The translations under genes were made by a program, and so were the position numbers. The notes beneath the pieces were generated by a model. It was not told where the DNA came from. It searched no databases and saw only the letters and a list, made by a program, of their open reading frames with translations. 64,000 bases of DNA from Escherichia coli. GTDB taxonomy: Bacteria; Pseudomonadota; Gammaproteobacteria; Enterobacterales; Enterobacteriaceae. Of the stretch, positions 38,859 through 45,511 are shown piece after piece. Each line of letters starts with the position of its first letter. The stretch's first letter is position 1. The DNA is taken from assembly GCF_041886205.1 (NCBI RefSeq), contig NZ_CP169029.1; one strand, 5' to 3'.

Positions 38859-39176
38859 TCAGAGGTCAAAGTTAGGTGCGACACACAACGTTTTTCCCTC
38901 AATAACCGGTACAACTCTGTTTTGTTCATACAGTAAATCCAGTAACCAGTTGATTTTATCCTTTTTCCGGAAACGGTTCGGACCACGCTGTAAAATGTCA
39001 TTTTTTTTCATACAGAGGATCCCCTTCTCAATACAATAGCTTTTTATCCAGTTGAAAAGTTCAAGCTCCTCTGGAATGAGTCGCACAGGTACGGTCAGGG
39101 CAGAGTTGTCAAAAGTTAACGGATTAGACAACCGCACATACTCATTACCGTACCATATTGCTAATTCTCTCGCCAT
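38859..39176 (-). pseudogene. DUF3987 (YfjI-like) gene, C-terminal fragment, disrupted by IS186
   Basis: Frame continues from the IS186 junction. Confidence 0.5.
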
Positions 39177-39202
39177 TTCTGCAGTGTAAGGGGAAATATC
39201 CC

Positions 39203-40541
39203 CATAAGCGCTAACTTAAGGGTTGTGGTATTACGCCTGATATGATTTAACGTGCCGATGAATTACTCTCACGATAACTGGTCAGCAATTCTGGCCCATA
39301 TTGGTAAGCCCGAAGAACTGGATACTTCGGCACGTAATGCCGGGGCTCTAACCCGCCGCCGCGAAATTCGTGATGCTGCAACTCTGCTACGTCTGGGGCT
39401 GGCTTACGGCCCCGGGGGGATGTCATTACGTGAAGTCACTGCATGGGCTCAGCTCCATGACGTTGCAACATTATCTGACGTGGCTCTCCTGAAGCGGCTG
39501 CGGAATGCCGCCGACTGGTTTGGCATACTTGCCGCACAAACACTTGCTGTACGCGCCGCAGTTACGGGTTGTACAAGCGGAAAGAGATTGCGTCTTGTCG
39601 ATGGAACAGCAATCAGTGCGCCCGGGGGCGGCAGCGCTGAATGGCGACTACATATGGGATATGATCCTCATACCTGTCAGTTCACTGATTTTGAGCTAAC
39701 CGACAGCAGAGACGCTGAACGGCTGGACCGATTTGCGCAAACGGCAGACGAGATACGCATTGCTGACCGGGGATTCGGTTCGCGTCCCGAATGTATCCGC
39801 TCACTTGCTTTTGGAGAAGCTGATTATATCGTCCGGGTTCACTGGCGAGGATTGCGCTGGTTAACTGCAGAAGGAATGCGCTTTGACATGATGGGTTTTC
39901 TGCGCGGGCTGGATTGCGGTAAGAACGGTGAAACCACTGTAATGATAGGCAATTCAGGTAATAAAAAAGCCGGAGCTCCCTTTCCGGCACGTCTCATTGC
40001 CGTATCACTTCCTCCCGAAAAAGCATTAATCAGTAAAACCCGACTGCTCAGCGAGAATCGTCGAAAAGGACGAGTAGTTCAGGCGGAAACGCTGGAAGCA
40101 GCGGGCCATGTGCTATTGCTAACATCATTACCGGAAGATGAATATTCAGCAGAGCAAGTGGCTGATTGTTACCGTCTGCGATGGCAAATTGAACTGGCTT
40201 TTAAGCGGCTCAAAAGTTTGCTGCACCTGGATGCTTTGCGTGCAAAGGAACCTGAACTCGCGAAAGCGTGGATATTTGCTAATCTACTCGCCGCATTTTT
40301 AATTGACGACATAATCCAGCCATCGCTGGATTTCCCCCCCAGAAGTGCCGGATCCGAAAAGAAGAACTAACTCGTTGTGGAGAATAACAAAAATGGTCAT
40401 CTGGAGCTTACAGGTGGCCATTCGTGGGACAGTATCCCTGACAGCCTACAAAACGCAATTGAAGAACGCGAGGCATCGTCTTAACGAGGCACCGAGGCGT
40501 CGCATTCTTCAGATGGTTCAACCCTTAAGTTAGCGCTTATG
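39203..40541 (+). mobile_element. IS186 (IS4 family) with 11-bp target duplication GGAAATATCCC
   Basis: 23-bp inverted repeats CATAAGCGCTAACTTAAGGGTTG at 39203-39225 and 40519-40541; direct repeats at 39192-39202 and 40542-40552. Confidence 0.85.
39252..40370 (+). CDS. insL: IS186 transposase (InsL)
   Basis: 372 aa; translation MNYSHDNWSAILAHIGKPEELDTSARNAGALTRRREIRDAATLLRLGLAYG... matches my recollection of IS186 InsL. Confidence 0.85.
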   Translation: MPMNYSHDNWSAILAHIGKPEELDTSARNAGALTRRREIRDAATLLRLGLAYGPGGMSLREVTAWAQLHDVATLSDVALLKRLRNAADWFGILAAQTLAVRAAVTGCTSGKRLRLVDGTAISAPGGGSAEWRLHMGYDPHTCQFTDFELTDSRDAERLDRFAQTADEIRIADRGFGSRPECIRSLAFGEADYIVRVHWRGLRWLTAEGMRFDMMGFLRGLDCGKNGETTVMIGNSGNKKAGAPFPARLIAVSLPPEKALISKTRLLSENRRKGRVVQAETLEAAGHVLLLTSLPEDEYSAEQVADCYRLRWQIELAFKRLKSLLHLDALRAKEPELAKAWIFANLLAAFLIDDIIQPSLDFPPRSAGSEKKN

Positions 40542-41660
40542 GGAAATATCCCCCTCTTCACCGCTCGAATGGTAAATAAGTCCTGCCAGTCTTGCCATAT
40601 ACTCTGCATTTTTAGCAGCATATTCCCGGCAATGTCTTAAAGGCCCCAATCCCCCCAGCTTCGATTCCACATCATTGTAATAATCCGTCCAGATTCTGGC
40701 AGCCTGAGGAGAAAAGTGAAGGCAACGTCGTTCACCACTCATCGCCAGACTTTCATCAATAAGCTCATTGATCCTCTCTTCAAACAAATCCTGATACTGT
40801 GATGAATAATTATCTCCGGTTATTATCCTTGTCCCCTGCGTTGATGTTGGTTGACACATCAAAAACCTTGCATGATGTCCTGACGTTTTCACAATTTCTT
40901 TTTTTCGCGTACAAAAACCTTTGTGGTAAACATCAGGCTGAATCATCACCGATATCGTCAGTCTTGGCTCCTTCAAATTAATTCCGGGAGATGATTTCCT
41001 GTCGATGAAAAGAGAACCTCCATCCCACAAAGTGTTAATAATTCCCAGTTTACTCATGGCCCGGCTGTCAAAAATTACCCCCCCTTCACTGGATACAAGA
41101 GCAAAAGAGCGATTGCTGTCGGAATAATATTTTAACATTCCCTCTATCGTTGTCTCATTAAAAATTGTTCGACGTATCTGCGGCGGAACAGGAGGTTTAT
41201 TCAGATGCGTTTCAAGCTCTGATTCTGTTGCCTTGTAATCTTTACCGGCACGAATCTCTTTATGAAATTTTGATTCCAGCGCTTTTTGTTTTTGCTCCCA
41301 TATTTCCTTTTCTGTACTGTAATTCTCAACCAGTTTCGCGTATTCTTCCGCCAGGGCTTCATCCCTGAGATAAAATGCTTTCATAAACACTTTATCCACG
41401 GTCGTTTTCCTTTCACCGGAATCAGCCAGAATCAGAGAGTAAAGATTAACAGGCCCATGTAAATTTCCAGGTCTGCACACGTCAATCTGATTCTGACAGG
41501 CAATTGAGATCGCTGTTAATGCGGATGTTGCCACCATAGCCAAAGGTGCCTGTGTATTTTTTTGAGTTTCAATTATTGCATTTCTCACCAGCGGTGGTAG
41601 TGCATATATCGGATAAGGATTTTCTGGTGCAAGTAAGCACATAAAAGCCTCTCTTTTCAT
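40530..41660 (-). pseudogene. DUF3987 (YfjI-like) gene, N-terminal 376 codons, disrupted by IS186
   Basis: Resembles CP4-57 YfjI; frame ends inside the IS186 terminal repeat. Confidence 0.55.
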
Positions 41661-41860
41661 TAATGGGTTAGTAAAATAGCAGCAAATCCCGCTACAATAG
41701 CGAAAATAGCTGCTATTCAGACCTGATGCTCTGAGAAATACAGAGCATTTGTAGATCTGATGTTTAATAAACCGATAAGGTTAATTCAGTGAAGACTGTA
41801 TTATTCACCACGAAATATCATTCATATTTCTCATTCTTAATACCTCCAGAAATTATTTCA

Positions 41861-42200
41861 CTAATACCTTTCCCCCGGTCTTTTCCCTTTCTCCAGAACC
41901 ATAGTGTAAATATTAACGGCCCCACGTAAATTTCCGGGACTGCATACGTCAACCTGATTCTGACAGGCAATTGACATCGCTGTTAATACTGACATTGCAA
42001 CCAGAGTCAGAGGTACTTGTTTATTGTATTGAGCTTTAATTATTGCCTTCCCTATCATTGATGGTCATGCATATACTGAATACGGCATATCCGGTTTGAT
42101 GTAAGACATAAATGCTTCCTTTTTCGTAATACGTTTCGGTTATAGCAGCAATTACCGCTACAATAGCGACAATAGCTGCTCTTTCAACAATGAATGCTGG
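41861..42200 (-). repeat. Degenerate tandem duplicate of the yfjI-like 5' end and upstream region
   Basis: 41900-42190 aligns with 41440-41700; the 65-aa ORF 41861..42058 repeats the N-terminal motif (...SIACQNQVDVCSPGNL...). Confidence 0.55.
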
Positions 42201-42284
42201 AAATTCTGTTTATCAATTAAACTTCTGGATAAATTGTTCTTATGCTTCTTTTTCCTCCTGAGGTGATCACGTGATGACAAAAAC

Positions 42285-42593
42285 TTATCTGCTCATGGTC
42301 ATATCTGAAGAAAGCGTATGTCGCACTTCGTCATTAACACCTTTGACTGCTGATCTGGCAGGTACAGTATGTAAAGTAAGCCATTCGTCAATAGCTGATG
42401 AACGCCAGCCCACAGAACCACTACCAAGACGTACCGGCCTGGGGAAGGTTGCATCGTAGTATTTCGATAACGGATTCATTTTTTCGTAAATTGTCGAACG
42501 AGATATACCTAACAATTGGCTCAGTTCAGGCATCCGTAAGATGCGTGAAGGAGTCCAGCAGTATCCGGATTGATCTGGCATTTTATCCCCCAT
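42285..42593 (-). CDS. alpA: AlpA-family phage regulatory protein
   Basis: Motif RILRMPELSQLLGISRSTIYEKMN...YDATFPRPVRLGSGSVGWRSSAIDEWL. Confidence 0.7.
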   Translation of the reverse strand: MGDKMPDQSGYCWTPSRILRMPELSQLLGISRSTIYEKMNPLSKYYDATFPRPVRLGSGSVGWRSSAIDEWLTLHTVPARSAVKGVNDEVRHTLSSDMTMSR

Positions 42594-42786: not shown

Positions 42787-43553
42787 CCTGGTAATGACTC
42801 CAGTCAGTAGTACAGTGTTTTCGACAAATGAACCAATGGCTTTTCGTGAATTTCCAGGGAGCGTGAAAAGCAAATCGTTTTCCGGGCTGGTCGTTTGATG
42901 TGAGTACGAAGTGTCAGATTGTTGCACTCAATGCGCCGGGTAAATATCTTGCCGACAAGATGCTTATCCTGTGGCATTTCTCTGGTATAACTGCTCCGGT
43001 TGTCTCTGGTTATCATGCCTGTGGAGAATGGCTTCAGGAGTTCCGGCAACTCACGACATGTTTCATCAGTGCGAGGACCAAAAGTGTAAGCCAGCACACC
43101 TCCAGATTTGGTGTTATACGCATACCAGTGCCACTGCTGACGAGCTTTGTTTTCGACAAAACTCCATTGTTCATCAAGTTCGCAGATAAGCGTCACATCG
43201 GCACTGGCGACTGGAGATGTGGTTACTTTGCGTGGTGAGCGTTTTATAAAGTGAGAATGACGGTGTTGATATCCACCTTCAGCGTTCTGGAACTATCGCG
43301 AACCCCGACTCCGTTATGAACCATTTCAACAATTTGCTCTTTAATGCCTGGTTTTCGGGTTTCGTAGATGTAATTCAGTTGAAATACACACGTTTGCAGG
43401 ATTAGCACTGGAAACGCTCATGATCTGAGGTGCTGTGATCATAATGGTACACTTTATAGGAATTACAGCTGGGAGAATGTACTGTAACTGTTGCCATATG
43501 GTCTCCAGATACCAATAGAATACCACATTAATCTATCGTCAGAAGGCATCACC
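42787..43553 (-). mobile_element. Divergent IS1-family element
   Basis: 767 bp; IS1-like termini (GGTAATGACTCCAG... and ...GAAGGCATCACC); InsA-like C-terminus (MVHNGVGVRDSSRTLKVDINTVIL) and InsB-like ORF. Confidence 0.6.
42804..43196 (-). CDS. IS1-family InsB-like protein
   Basis: 130 aa; resembles IS1 InsB (DEQW...RQ.W..YAY...TQRIE.NL.LR.H..R). Confidence 0.6.
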   Translation of the reverse strand: MTLICELDEQWSFVENKARQQWHWYAYNTKSGGVLAYTFGPRTDETCRELPELLKPFSTGMITRDNRSSYTREMPQDKHLVGKIFTRRIECNNLTLRTHIKRPARKTICFSRSLEIHEKPLVHLSKTLYY

Positions 43554-43693: not shown

Positions 43694-45511
43694 ATGTATA
43701 ATTTTATCACTATAATGTATGATGTCTTTTCATGTTTTGGTGTTCTGGCTAAAAACCAGAATACCCGTGACATCCGAAATATTAAAAATTTTTCCTCACA
43801 TCAATATTCACTGGGCGACATGTTTGATGAATTAATAAACATTATTGATAAAGAACAAGTATTGAGTACAGAACAACGAAAAGTTATATTTAGGAGATAT
43901 GAAGATCTCTATGTTAAGCTAATGCACTATTCTGTTTTTACAGACCAAACACATCAAATAATAAAACAAAAATATTTTAATGACATTGTACCAATGATTC
44001 TCGCACTCGACATCAGGAACACATATCGCCCGGATAATGAGATGGCATTTTACTATCATATTCATTCTTTTCTCACTCAGATACCGGATAATGAGGATGA
44101 TATATATCATGCTGCAAGGACATATCTGCGAAATTACGTTAAGTTATGTTTATCCGGATACACACCAGCGAATGCGCATTTCAAAGATATCTTTGATGGC
44201 GTATATGAATTCATTCGTAATATTCGCAAAAACAGTACACCAGGAAAAACAAAACTTATCGCAACTATCAACACATGCAAAGAAACCTGTAAACATCTGC
44301 TTTATTTAAGTAATGAAGACAAGGAAAAAATAATTTCTGACTTAGATAAAGTTCAGGTTGCATGTTATTATCTCACTATATTACTGGCTTTCGAAAGACG
44401 AACTTCATTAACAAGCACCCTGGCAACTTTATATAAAATGCTGATAAGCGAAAGAGAAGTTTCAGAATATGAATGCCAGTTATTATATTTAACCAACCCA
44501 ATAGATGTAATGAATATACTGAACAAATACATATATTACTTTCCTAATGAAAACTCACCATTTTATACACTGAAAATTGACAGTGCATTATCGTGGGATG
44601 CCATTGACGCAATACGAGACTATAGTATTTCTGATATTTATCTTTATCCTGAACAAAAAACAATAAATTGTGTCGTTGAGATTGAAAACATTGTCTTTGG
44701 CGGTTACATTTATACATTGAACAACGGCGTCACATTACAAAACATAGAAAACACTTTAAAAGATTCTTCATGCCATTATGTCTTAAATGGCTATACAGAA
44801 TTTGTTAACTGTTTGATACAACTTACTTCAGGAAAGACTGAAAGTGTTCATCGCACCATCAATAAACTGAACTATGAGAAATTACCTTTTGGATTTATCA
44901 TTGCCGCGTTTGCTATACTAAAGATAGCATTTAAAATAAAATTCAGTAAAAATCATGTAAATATCCGAGCATTATTAAATGACATCAATTATTTTATGAC
45001 TTATCAGGGCGAGTCCATTAACCTTATTTCACTGGATCACGAATACCCAGAGTCCTGTCTTCAAAATGACACAAACACATATTTATTAGGAAGAGTAATA
45101 TTTCTGTATAACTCAATGATTTATAAGTTCATAAACTGTCAGGAACATGAAACCAATAACATTCACTCAGCTATGATAAATAACCTATTACAGGAAGTTG
45201 ATATAGCCCTTGGTAAAATAAATAACATTATAGACAGCAGAAACATATCAGCCCCCCATGAACTGGCAAATATTCTTACCCGCGAAAAAATACTTACAAC
45301 ACGGGAAAAAAAAGGAAACCTGATAAGCCTGTTTGATGGATTCACTTTATTCCATTGTGTTGGAATGATAACCTTTCTTATCCATTATCTCAGAACACCT
45401 GAAGAAAAAGTTGAAAATATATTTATGTTATATGGTGCAGATAAAAACAATAAACTACGCAGAAGACTGATTTATGACGCACTAGGAATAATTCAGTCTC
45501 AGCAGGAGTGA
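43694..45511 (+). CDS. Hypothetical protein, 605 aa, AT-rich orphan in the int-alpA variable slot
   Basis: Long uninterrupted ORF; very low GC versus flanks; no motif I can recognise. Confidence 0.5.
   Translation: MYNFITIMYDVFSCFGVLAKNQNTRDIRNIKNFSSHQYSLGDMFDELINIIDKEQVLSTEQRKVIFRRYEDLYVKLMHYSVFTDQTHQIIKQKYFNDIVPMILALDIRNTYRPDNEMAFYYHIHSFLTQIPDNEDDIYHAARTYLRNYVKLCLSGYTPANAHFKDIFDGVYEFIRNIRKNSTPGKTKLIATINTCKETCKHLLYLSNEDKEKIISDLDKVQVACYYLTILLAFERRTSLTSTLATLYKMLISEREVSEYECQLLYLTNPIDVMNILNKYIYYFPNENSPFYTLKIDSALSWDAIDAIRDYSISDIYLYPEQKTINCVVEIENIVFGGYIYTLNNGVTLQNIENTLKDSSCHYVLNGYTEFVNCLIQLTSGKTESVHRTINKLNYEKLPFGFIIAAFAILKIAFKIKFSKNHVNIRALLNDINYFMTYQGESINLISLDHEYPESCLQNDTNTYLLGRVIFLYNSMIYKFINCQEHETNNIHSAMINNLLQEVDIALGKINNIIDSRNISAPHELANILTREKILTTREKKGNLISLFDGFTLFHCVGMITFLIHYLRTPEEKVENIFMLYGADKNNKLRRRLIYDALGIIQSQQE

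Follow-up and report, generated by a model that had tools for sequence, protein, structure and literature searches.

Two separated copies of a cis-element beside a replication gene are known from the satellite phage P4, in which two separated site clusters, ori1 and crr, are bound by the alpha primase-helicase. These P4 sites are direct octamer iterons separated by several kb, and the protein that binds them is characterised. In the AlpA module of Gram-negative PICIs such as EcCICFT073, which shows an int-alpA-replication gene layout, AlpA switches on the downstream replication genes as well as its own promoter (PMC6092414); the replication gene of this element is a pri-rep fusion, and the description of the module mentions neither a duplicated gene start nor a palindrome. 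The DUF3987 proteins, to which YfjI belongs, act as 5'-3' helicases and have AEP primases as their partners on mobile elements (PMC11724360). Among the proteins named AlpA, only the one from P. aeruginosa has been characterised structurally; it recognises a 6-bp monomer site, GGGACG (PMC9371919).

Here, we analysed an int-alpA-yfjI island module of E. coli in which the start of yfjI is found twice; "the window" refers to the whole 64-kb stretch of DNA that was examined. Like P4 ori1/crr, the locus represents a mobile element whose replication gene is associated with two separated copies of a cis-element; unlike in P4, these copies are palindromes 466 bp apart that stem from a duplication, and an origin function is a candidate at most. 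The layout of integrase, alpA and replication gene is shared with the EcCICFT073-type PICI, but the island described here is larger and is not a PICI. The gene order of integrase, alpA-type HTH gene, palindrome, DUF3987/yfjI and inovirus-Gp2-like yfjJ is likewise that of the cryptic prophage CP4-57 in K-12 and of loci in Yersinia and Citrobacter, where a related palindrome (GCTATTTCCGCCATTAATAGCGGAATAGC) lies 45-80 nt upstream of yfjI. In contrast to the locus studied here, the latter are single-copy, their YfjI proteins are only ~40% identical, and their palindrome is of a type (K) that has one extra central base and is devoid of the AGCAGC/GCTGCT outer arms. Finally, the second copy resembles the 5' pseudogene fragments that recombination leaves behind as gene remnants in mosaic islands and prophages: it repeats a gene start directly, but in truncated form, beside its paralogue, shows lineage-specific stops and frameshifts and a dN/dS of ~1, and is a substrate for homologous exchange (L014, L016). 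It differs from such remnants in two respects: its 39-bp non-coding palindrome is more conserved than the third codon positions of the intact gene, and the junction contains ~100 nt without detectable source.

A diverged second copy of the yfjI start

Copy A (41372-41718, minus strand) covers codons 1 to ~90 of yfjI and 76 nt of upstream sequence; its parts are the start ATG at 41642 (minus), a 22-nt leader with a Shine-Dalgarno sequence and the palindrome P_A at 41676-41714. Copy B (41847-42184, minus strand) is a diverged direct repeat of copy A with ~76% identity and shows the same order of parts, i.e. the palindrome P_B, a leader with AAGGAAG, a vestigial ATG at 42109 and a broken reading frame. 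A repeat search returned the direct repeats 41426-41658/41893-42125 (233 nt, 76% ungapped) and 41644-41717/42110-42183 (74 nt, 74%), which places the two copies in the same orientation with a spacing of 466-467 nt. An alignment of 41400-41740 with 41860-42200 using MAFFT was colinear over the full length, and the local-alignment score of A against B reached 243, compared to 18.4 +/- 2.0 for shuffled sequences (z = 110). These values bear out the initial annotation, which had proposed a diverged second copy of the yfjI 5' end and its upstream sequence, and they put the similarity far above background level. The same annotation had called the duplication tandem. This is correct in so far as the copies are direct repeats in the same orientation; they do not abut, however, since ~100 nt of unrelated spacer sequence separates them at the junction.

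In the direction of transcription (minus), the order of elements is integrase, a 605-aa ORF on the other strand, an IS1 remnant, alpA, copy B, the spacer and copy A/yfjI. The integrase gene (46901-45699, minus) lies upstream of the 605-aa ORF (43694-45511, plus), which has no Pfam match; between integrase and alpA, every related island (L003, L004, L005, L010, L014) has a divergently oriented ORF of 536-608 aa at this position. The degraded IS1 between alpA and the 605-aa ORF (42800-43500) comprises several broken ORFs and is annotated by PGAP as a frameshifted transposase pseudogene in identical strains. Just beyond the integrase, the segment 47020-47438 shows two sub-threshold RtT-like repeats (38 bits vs a gathering score of 45) as well as weak matches to MicC and the Thr leader. 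No tRNA gene was detected by ARAGORN in the 64-kb window; related islands adjoin tRNA-Ser-associated loci in the clpA or phoH neighbourhoods (L001, L002).

The 5' 370 codons of the real yfjI, encoding a protein of the DUF3987 helicase family, are located at 40530-41642 (minus), with 41642 corresponding to the PGAP start. The complete ORF (40530-41660) comprises 376 aa and ends with ...GDISHKR and a stop codon, and the C-terminal 105 aa continue in the ORF 38859-39176. The gene is interrupted by an IS at ~39177-40529, whose transposase ORF (39252-40370, plus) belongs to the IS4 family (NCBIfam NF033592, E = 1e-38). An intact yfjI of 477 aa is represented by the homologue in L001 (Pfam DUF3987, E = 1e-83) and is present in otherwise identical strains such as C11. 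With yfjI split by the IS, this strain probably has no active int-alpA-yfjI module.

The coding part of copy B

Between 41847 and 42109 (minus), copy B retains vestigial yfjI codons 1 to ~90, which are interrupted by a TGA at codon 15 (42065-42067) and lack 10 nt that are present in copy A. Its translation reads MSYIKPDMPYSVYA, followed by a stop and PSMIGKAII..., as opposed to MCLLAPENPYPIYALPPLVRNAII... in copy A. Within this fragment, a 65-aa ORF (41861-42058, minus) is listed by RefSeq/PGAP as 'DUF3987 domain-containing protein' (WP_000579535.1; NZ_CP010133, NZ_AP027818). It does match DUF3987 (PF13148) with 32.7 bits (cut-off 27; E = 5.8e-8), but the match is confined to model positions 1-42 of 364. 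The homology ends at ~codon 90, and with its internal TGA and the 10-nt deletion the ORF has no complete DUF3987 domain with the Walker A/B ATPase core; judged by this domain content, it is a fragment and not a functional member of the family.

Nevertheless, copy B could in principle encode a functional N-terminal YfjI peptide of 65-75 aa, acting for example as a regulator or as a dominant-negative helicase partner. The annotation as a CDS by PGAP, the Shine-Dalgarno-like AAGGAAG in front of the vestigial ATG and a frame that stays open for 75 codons in L003 and L013 and for 73 codons, with a different end, in L010 would all be compatible with such a product, as would the under-representation of A-vs-B differences at second codon positions (p ~0.04-0.05). 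However, codon 15 is a TGA in the window type, which is the commonest one (~1000 genomes), and a TAA in L004, where frameshifts and indels are found in addition. The ends of the ORF vary by lineage, and PGAP itself labels the copy B fragment as a pseudogene in other lineages, e.g. L003. Nei-Gojobori dN/dS values range from 0.5 to 3.2 for the B copies, averaging about 1, and from 0.45 to 0.66 for the A copies. We consider a functional peptide very unlikely. Based on stops and frameshifts that differ between lineages and on a dN/dS of ~1, the coding part of copy B is a neutrally decaying pseudogene.

Distribution and origin of the duplication

Among 5426 complete E. coli genomes, 1024 contain the 1.4-kb region at ≥80% coverage. 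Copy B together with the spacer was found in 1337/5426 genomes, and carriers include O157:H7, O26, O111, CFT073, Nissle 1917 and ATCC 25922. The same architecture recurs in related islands of at least five diverged lineages (window, L003, L004, L010, L013), which have the truncation point, the spacer and the order of elements in common. Since junction and spacer are common to these five lineages, the duplication, read from its boundaries, arose once and long ago. The initial annotation had considered a relic of unequal recombination as one possible origin; with a single event, the same junction in five lineages, lineage-specific stops and frameshifts and a dN/dS of ~1 in copy B, this is the best reading of the repeat.

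The synonymous divergence between A and B (dS 0.35-0.43) exceeds that among the lineages (≤0.31), which implies that either the A/B split is older than the lineages or copy B was derived from a diverged allele. Database matches to the B-type N-terminus were all fragments of ≤102 aa, with no full-length protein among them (1.84 billion representatives; 90% clusters), a result whose reach is limited by the fact that the 1.84-billion representative library collapses relatives of >50% identity. Wherever the B-type 5' end occurs in complete E. coli genomes, the spacer comes next. A scan of contigs from other species with E-type YfjI (see below) yielded only two distant loci, those of Yersinia rohdei and Citrobacter sp., at 39% identity, both of which are single-copy. 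Within E. coli, a single-copy form with alpA located 95 nt from yfjI is represented by strain 99E2750 (L005), and it is also found on the IMG/VR contig L036. Furthermore, L014 (2501-2764) and L016 (61-288) carry a chimeric copy B, in which the 5' half, i.e. palindrome and leader, is of the A/L005 type and the 3' half is of the B type. These chimeras point to homologous exchange or gene conversion between islands via the repeat.

The spacer (41745-41846) is an AT-rich stretch of ~100 nt with a GC content of 30%, and the homology of copy B to yfjI ends beyond 41847. We found no significant similarity of the spacer to the rest of yfjI, to the alpA region of the window or to the class-2 alpA introduced below. 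With permissive or palindrome-anchored alignments, weak similarity can be followed into yfjI codons ~90-108 and the final ~30 nt of class-2 alpA, as would fit a unit of 467 bp; tested singly, neither extension gave a match above shuffles. A simple abutting tandem duplication is therefore unlikely. No donor context for the spacer was found among the 5426 complete E. coli genomes, as the spacer alone occurs in exactly the same 1337 and only inside this architecture. Upstream of P_A, the stretch 41719-41744 (minus; …CTGTATTTCTCAG…GGTCTGA) contains ~25 nt homologous to the intergenic region between alpA2 and the palindrome of class-2 islands. By blastn, this region shows 82.5% identity over 40 nt to L003 (3463-3501) and also matches L006, and the nhmmer alignment agrees. 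The stretch 41719-41744 is the upstream edge of the duplicated unit.

The spacer also contains a mini-ORF of nine codons (41797-41826, minus; MRNMNDISW) with a strong GGAGG Shine-Dalgarno sequence, which is kept in the window, L003 and L004, where all changes are synonymous or stop-to-stop. As both the Shine-Dalgarno sequence and the ATG are missing in L010 and L013, a leader peptide is improbable and this candidate was rejected.

Conservation of the palindromes

P_B (42142-42180, minus) is a 39-nt nested palindrome with the sense strand AGCAGCTATTGTCGCTATTGTAGCGGTAATTGCTGCTAT. Its counterpart P_A, also 39 nt and on the minus strand, is an inverted repeat directly upstream of the real yfjI (AGCAGCTATTTTCGCTATTGTAGCGGGATTTGCTGCTAT). 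An exact pattern match detected only these two copies in the 64-kb window, while none would be expected by chance. The predicted fold of the single-stranded DNA is -11.5 kcal/mol for P_B (z = -4.0) and -11.6 kcal/mol for P_A (z = -5.2).

To describe variability, we counted the variable alignment columns over the five lineages (window, L003, L004, L010, L013). The P_B core is variable at 3/39 columns, compared to 12/33 (36%) in the leader of copy B, 107/271 (39%) in its pseudo-CDS and 57/140 (41%) in the spacer; for the P_A core, 7/39 columns are variable, and among the third codon positions of yfjI it is 24%. P_B thereby represents the least variable 39-nt segment in the alpA-yfjI interval, and it differs from both pseudo-CDS and spacer with p ~5e-5 (Fisher), although the region is mosaic, as seen from the chimeras L014 and L016, and counts of variable sites are therefore not phylogenetically clean. 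As the window, L010 and L013 have a common upstream class-1 alpA block, at most three of the lineages are independent; a retest of the constraint on P_B with three independent lineages gave p = 0.004-0.007. In every lineage, P_B retains B-specific bases, namely TATTGT where copy A has TATTTT and TATAACCGA where copy A has TAYTTTACT, and its conservation can therefore not be attributed to conversion from P_A. From this pattern, P_B is likely to be a retained cis-site under constraint.

It could be argued that copy B as a whole, including the palindrome, is a pure neutral relic without function, and that the conservation of P_B reflects a recent recombinational spread of the alpA-proximal block, the small sample or a low local mutation rate. 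The neutral decay of the coding part agrees with this account. In addition, P_B is identical in the window, L010 and L013, and the alpA blocks upstream of it are near-identical, which speaks for a common recombinant segment; mosaicism is evident in L014 and L016. However, L003 and L004 belong to the other alpA class and have other flanks, and yet no more than 2-3 of the 39 positions of their P_B deviate from the window type, whereas the leader and pseudo-CDS right beside it differ by 15-28%. Restricting the test to three lineages does not abolish the signal, and a related palindrome has been conserved out to Yersinia and K-12, where YfjI identity is 40%. Taken as a whole, we regard the purely neutral account as rather unlikely. 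The sequence comparison rather suggests that copy B is an old recombination relic with a dead coding part, whose palindrome probably remains under selection as a cis-site of the yfjI module; this site is now present twice, 466 bp apart.

The designation of the upstream sequence as a promoter region in the initial annotation is not supported by the comparison between lineages. A sigma-70 match (TTGAAA-16-TATTGT) overlaps P_B of the window type only and is absent at P_A as well as in L003 and L005, and the number of sigma-70 predictions equals the expectation from shuffled sequences. The sequence after P_B (ATAACCGAAACG) does not qualify as an intrinsic terminator; at P_A, only a weak inner hairpin of 7 pairs plus TATTTTACTA was called as such, and no call was obtained in L003 and L005. 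Promoter and terminator calls at the palindrome were rejected, being inconsistent between lineages. An RNA element was rejected as well, since the region matches no Rfam family, apart from a chance miRNA match (E = 0.71), and the covariation of the hairpin is not significant, the observed value being reached by 79-86 of 500 shuffles. With this level of covariation, a DNA operator and a hairpin are not separable.

The palindrome follows yfjI rather than alpA

Immediately upstream of copy B, alpA (42285-42581, minus) encodes a 98-aa HTH regulator (Pfam PF05930 Phage_AlpA, E = 5e-19), labelled by PGAP as 'helix-turn-helix transcriptional regulator'; alpA and yfjI may form one operon. Two classes of AlpA were distinguished in the islands, class 1 (98 aa) in the window, L010 and L013, and class 2 (75 aa) in L003, L004, L005 and L014. 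The AlpA of the window is 54% identical to that of K-12 and ~27% identical to the class-2 protein of L003 and L005. Class-1 and class-2 islands become homologous only a few nt from the left arm of P_B (window 42181-42290 vs L003 3400-3510), so that the palindrome marks the recombination breakpoint of a later swap of the alpA block.

A related palindrome is located between an alpA-type gene and yfjI in CP4-57 of K-12 (CTGCTATTTCCGCCATTAATAGCGGAATAGC), in Yersinia rohdei, in Citrobacter sp. and on several IMG/VR contigs. Judged by this recurrence, the palindrome upstream of yfjI seems to be a conserved cis-element of the alpA-yfjI junction that has so far gone undescribed. The related form (GCTATTTCCGCCATTAATAGCGGAATAGC) displays four GCTAT-like half-sites and was located at 3405-3440 in L009 (K-12, NC_000913.3), at ~3925-3970 in L007 and in L008.

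Arranging palindrome types and AlpA classes in a 2x2 scheme, type E occurs with class 1 (window) and with class 2 (L003, L005), and type K is likewise combined with both, class 1 in K-12 and class 2 in Yersinia. The palindrome type hence tracks the YfjI class (E/K, ~40% identical) and not the AlpA class (1/2, ~27% identical). As both types pair with both AlpA classes, the site appears to travel with yfjI and not with alpA.

This distribution bears on the suggestion in the initial annotation that the second copy might serve as a decoy operator for AlpA-type regulation. P_B would then be a second, putative AlpA-binding site that titrates AlpA or cooperates with P_A as an auxiliary operator. Its conserved position ~100 nt downstream of alpA would suit this role, and AlpA-type proteins of E. 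coli PICIs do activate downstream replication genes and their own promoter (PMC6092414). However, the palindrome type is independent of the AlpA class, with ~27% identity between the classes, and the window lineage exchanged its alpA block at the left arm of P_B while the core remained unchanged. The 6-bp monomer GGGACG recognised by P. aeruginosa AlpA is also unlike the palindrome (PMC9371919). For this reason, and because of the different protein architecture, the antiterminator model of P. aeruginosa AlpA was discarded as not applicable here (PMC9371919). Overall, an AlpA decoy seems improbable. What remains of the suggestion is a constrained P_B (3/39 variable columns), likely a retained cis-site; a specificity for AlpA is not supported, as the type follows the YfjI class.

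A model for the locus and its implications

According to our preferred reading of copy B as an old relic with a still selected palindrome, one ancient unequal or illegitimate recombination in the int-alpA-yfjI island module would have resulted in the order alpA, P_B with the vestigial yfjI start (~90 codons), ~100 nt of filler and P_A with the full yfjI. Both palindromes would have stayed in use after the duplication, with P_B adjoining alpA and heading a leader through the dead fragment, and P_A directly before yfjI. The palindrome itself would be a working cis-element of the alpA-yfjI junction, presumably a protein-binding operator or a hairpin of the yfjI (replication-helicase) module.

As working sites of the island's replication module, the palindromes might be places at which the helicase or an initiator is loaded, or hairpins, serving the downstream genes for the DUF3987 helicase and an AEP primase and flanking an AT-rich stretch. 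We see little chance for this being the case. If true, the duplication would have been retained since a bipartite site outperforms a single one, comparable to P4 ori1/crr, and the palindrome of CP4-57 in K-12 would be a long-unknown cis-element of the widespread int-alpA-yfjI module.

As a duplication, the repeat is ordinary: a pseudogene stub of this kind is typical of mosaic islands, and it is already in RefSeq as a small CDS. The main value of the analysis lies in flagging this mis-annotated CDS and in singling out the conserved 39-bp palindrome. Almost certainly, the 65-aa CDS that has been annotated in well over a thousand E. coli genomes is no gene. Copy B can be seen as a natural experiment in which the surroundings of the 39-bp palindrome have decayed and the palindrome has not. 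Kept amid this decay, the palindrome is a probable functional cis-element of the alpA-yfjI junction. The module with this junction occurs in ~25% of the complete E. coli genomes, among them O157:H7, CFT073 and Nissle 1917, and CP4-57 of K-12 has a related form of it.
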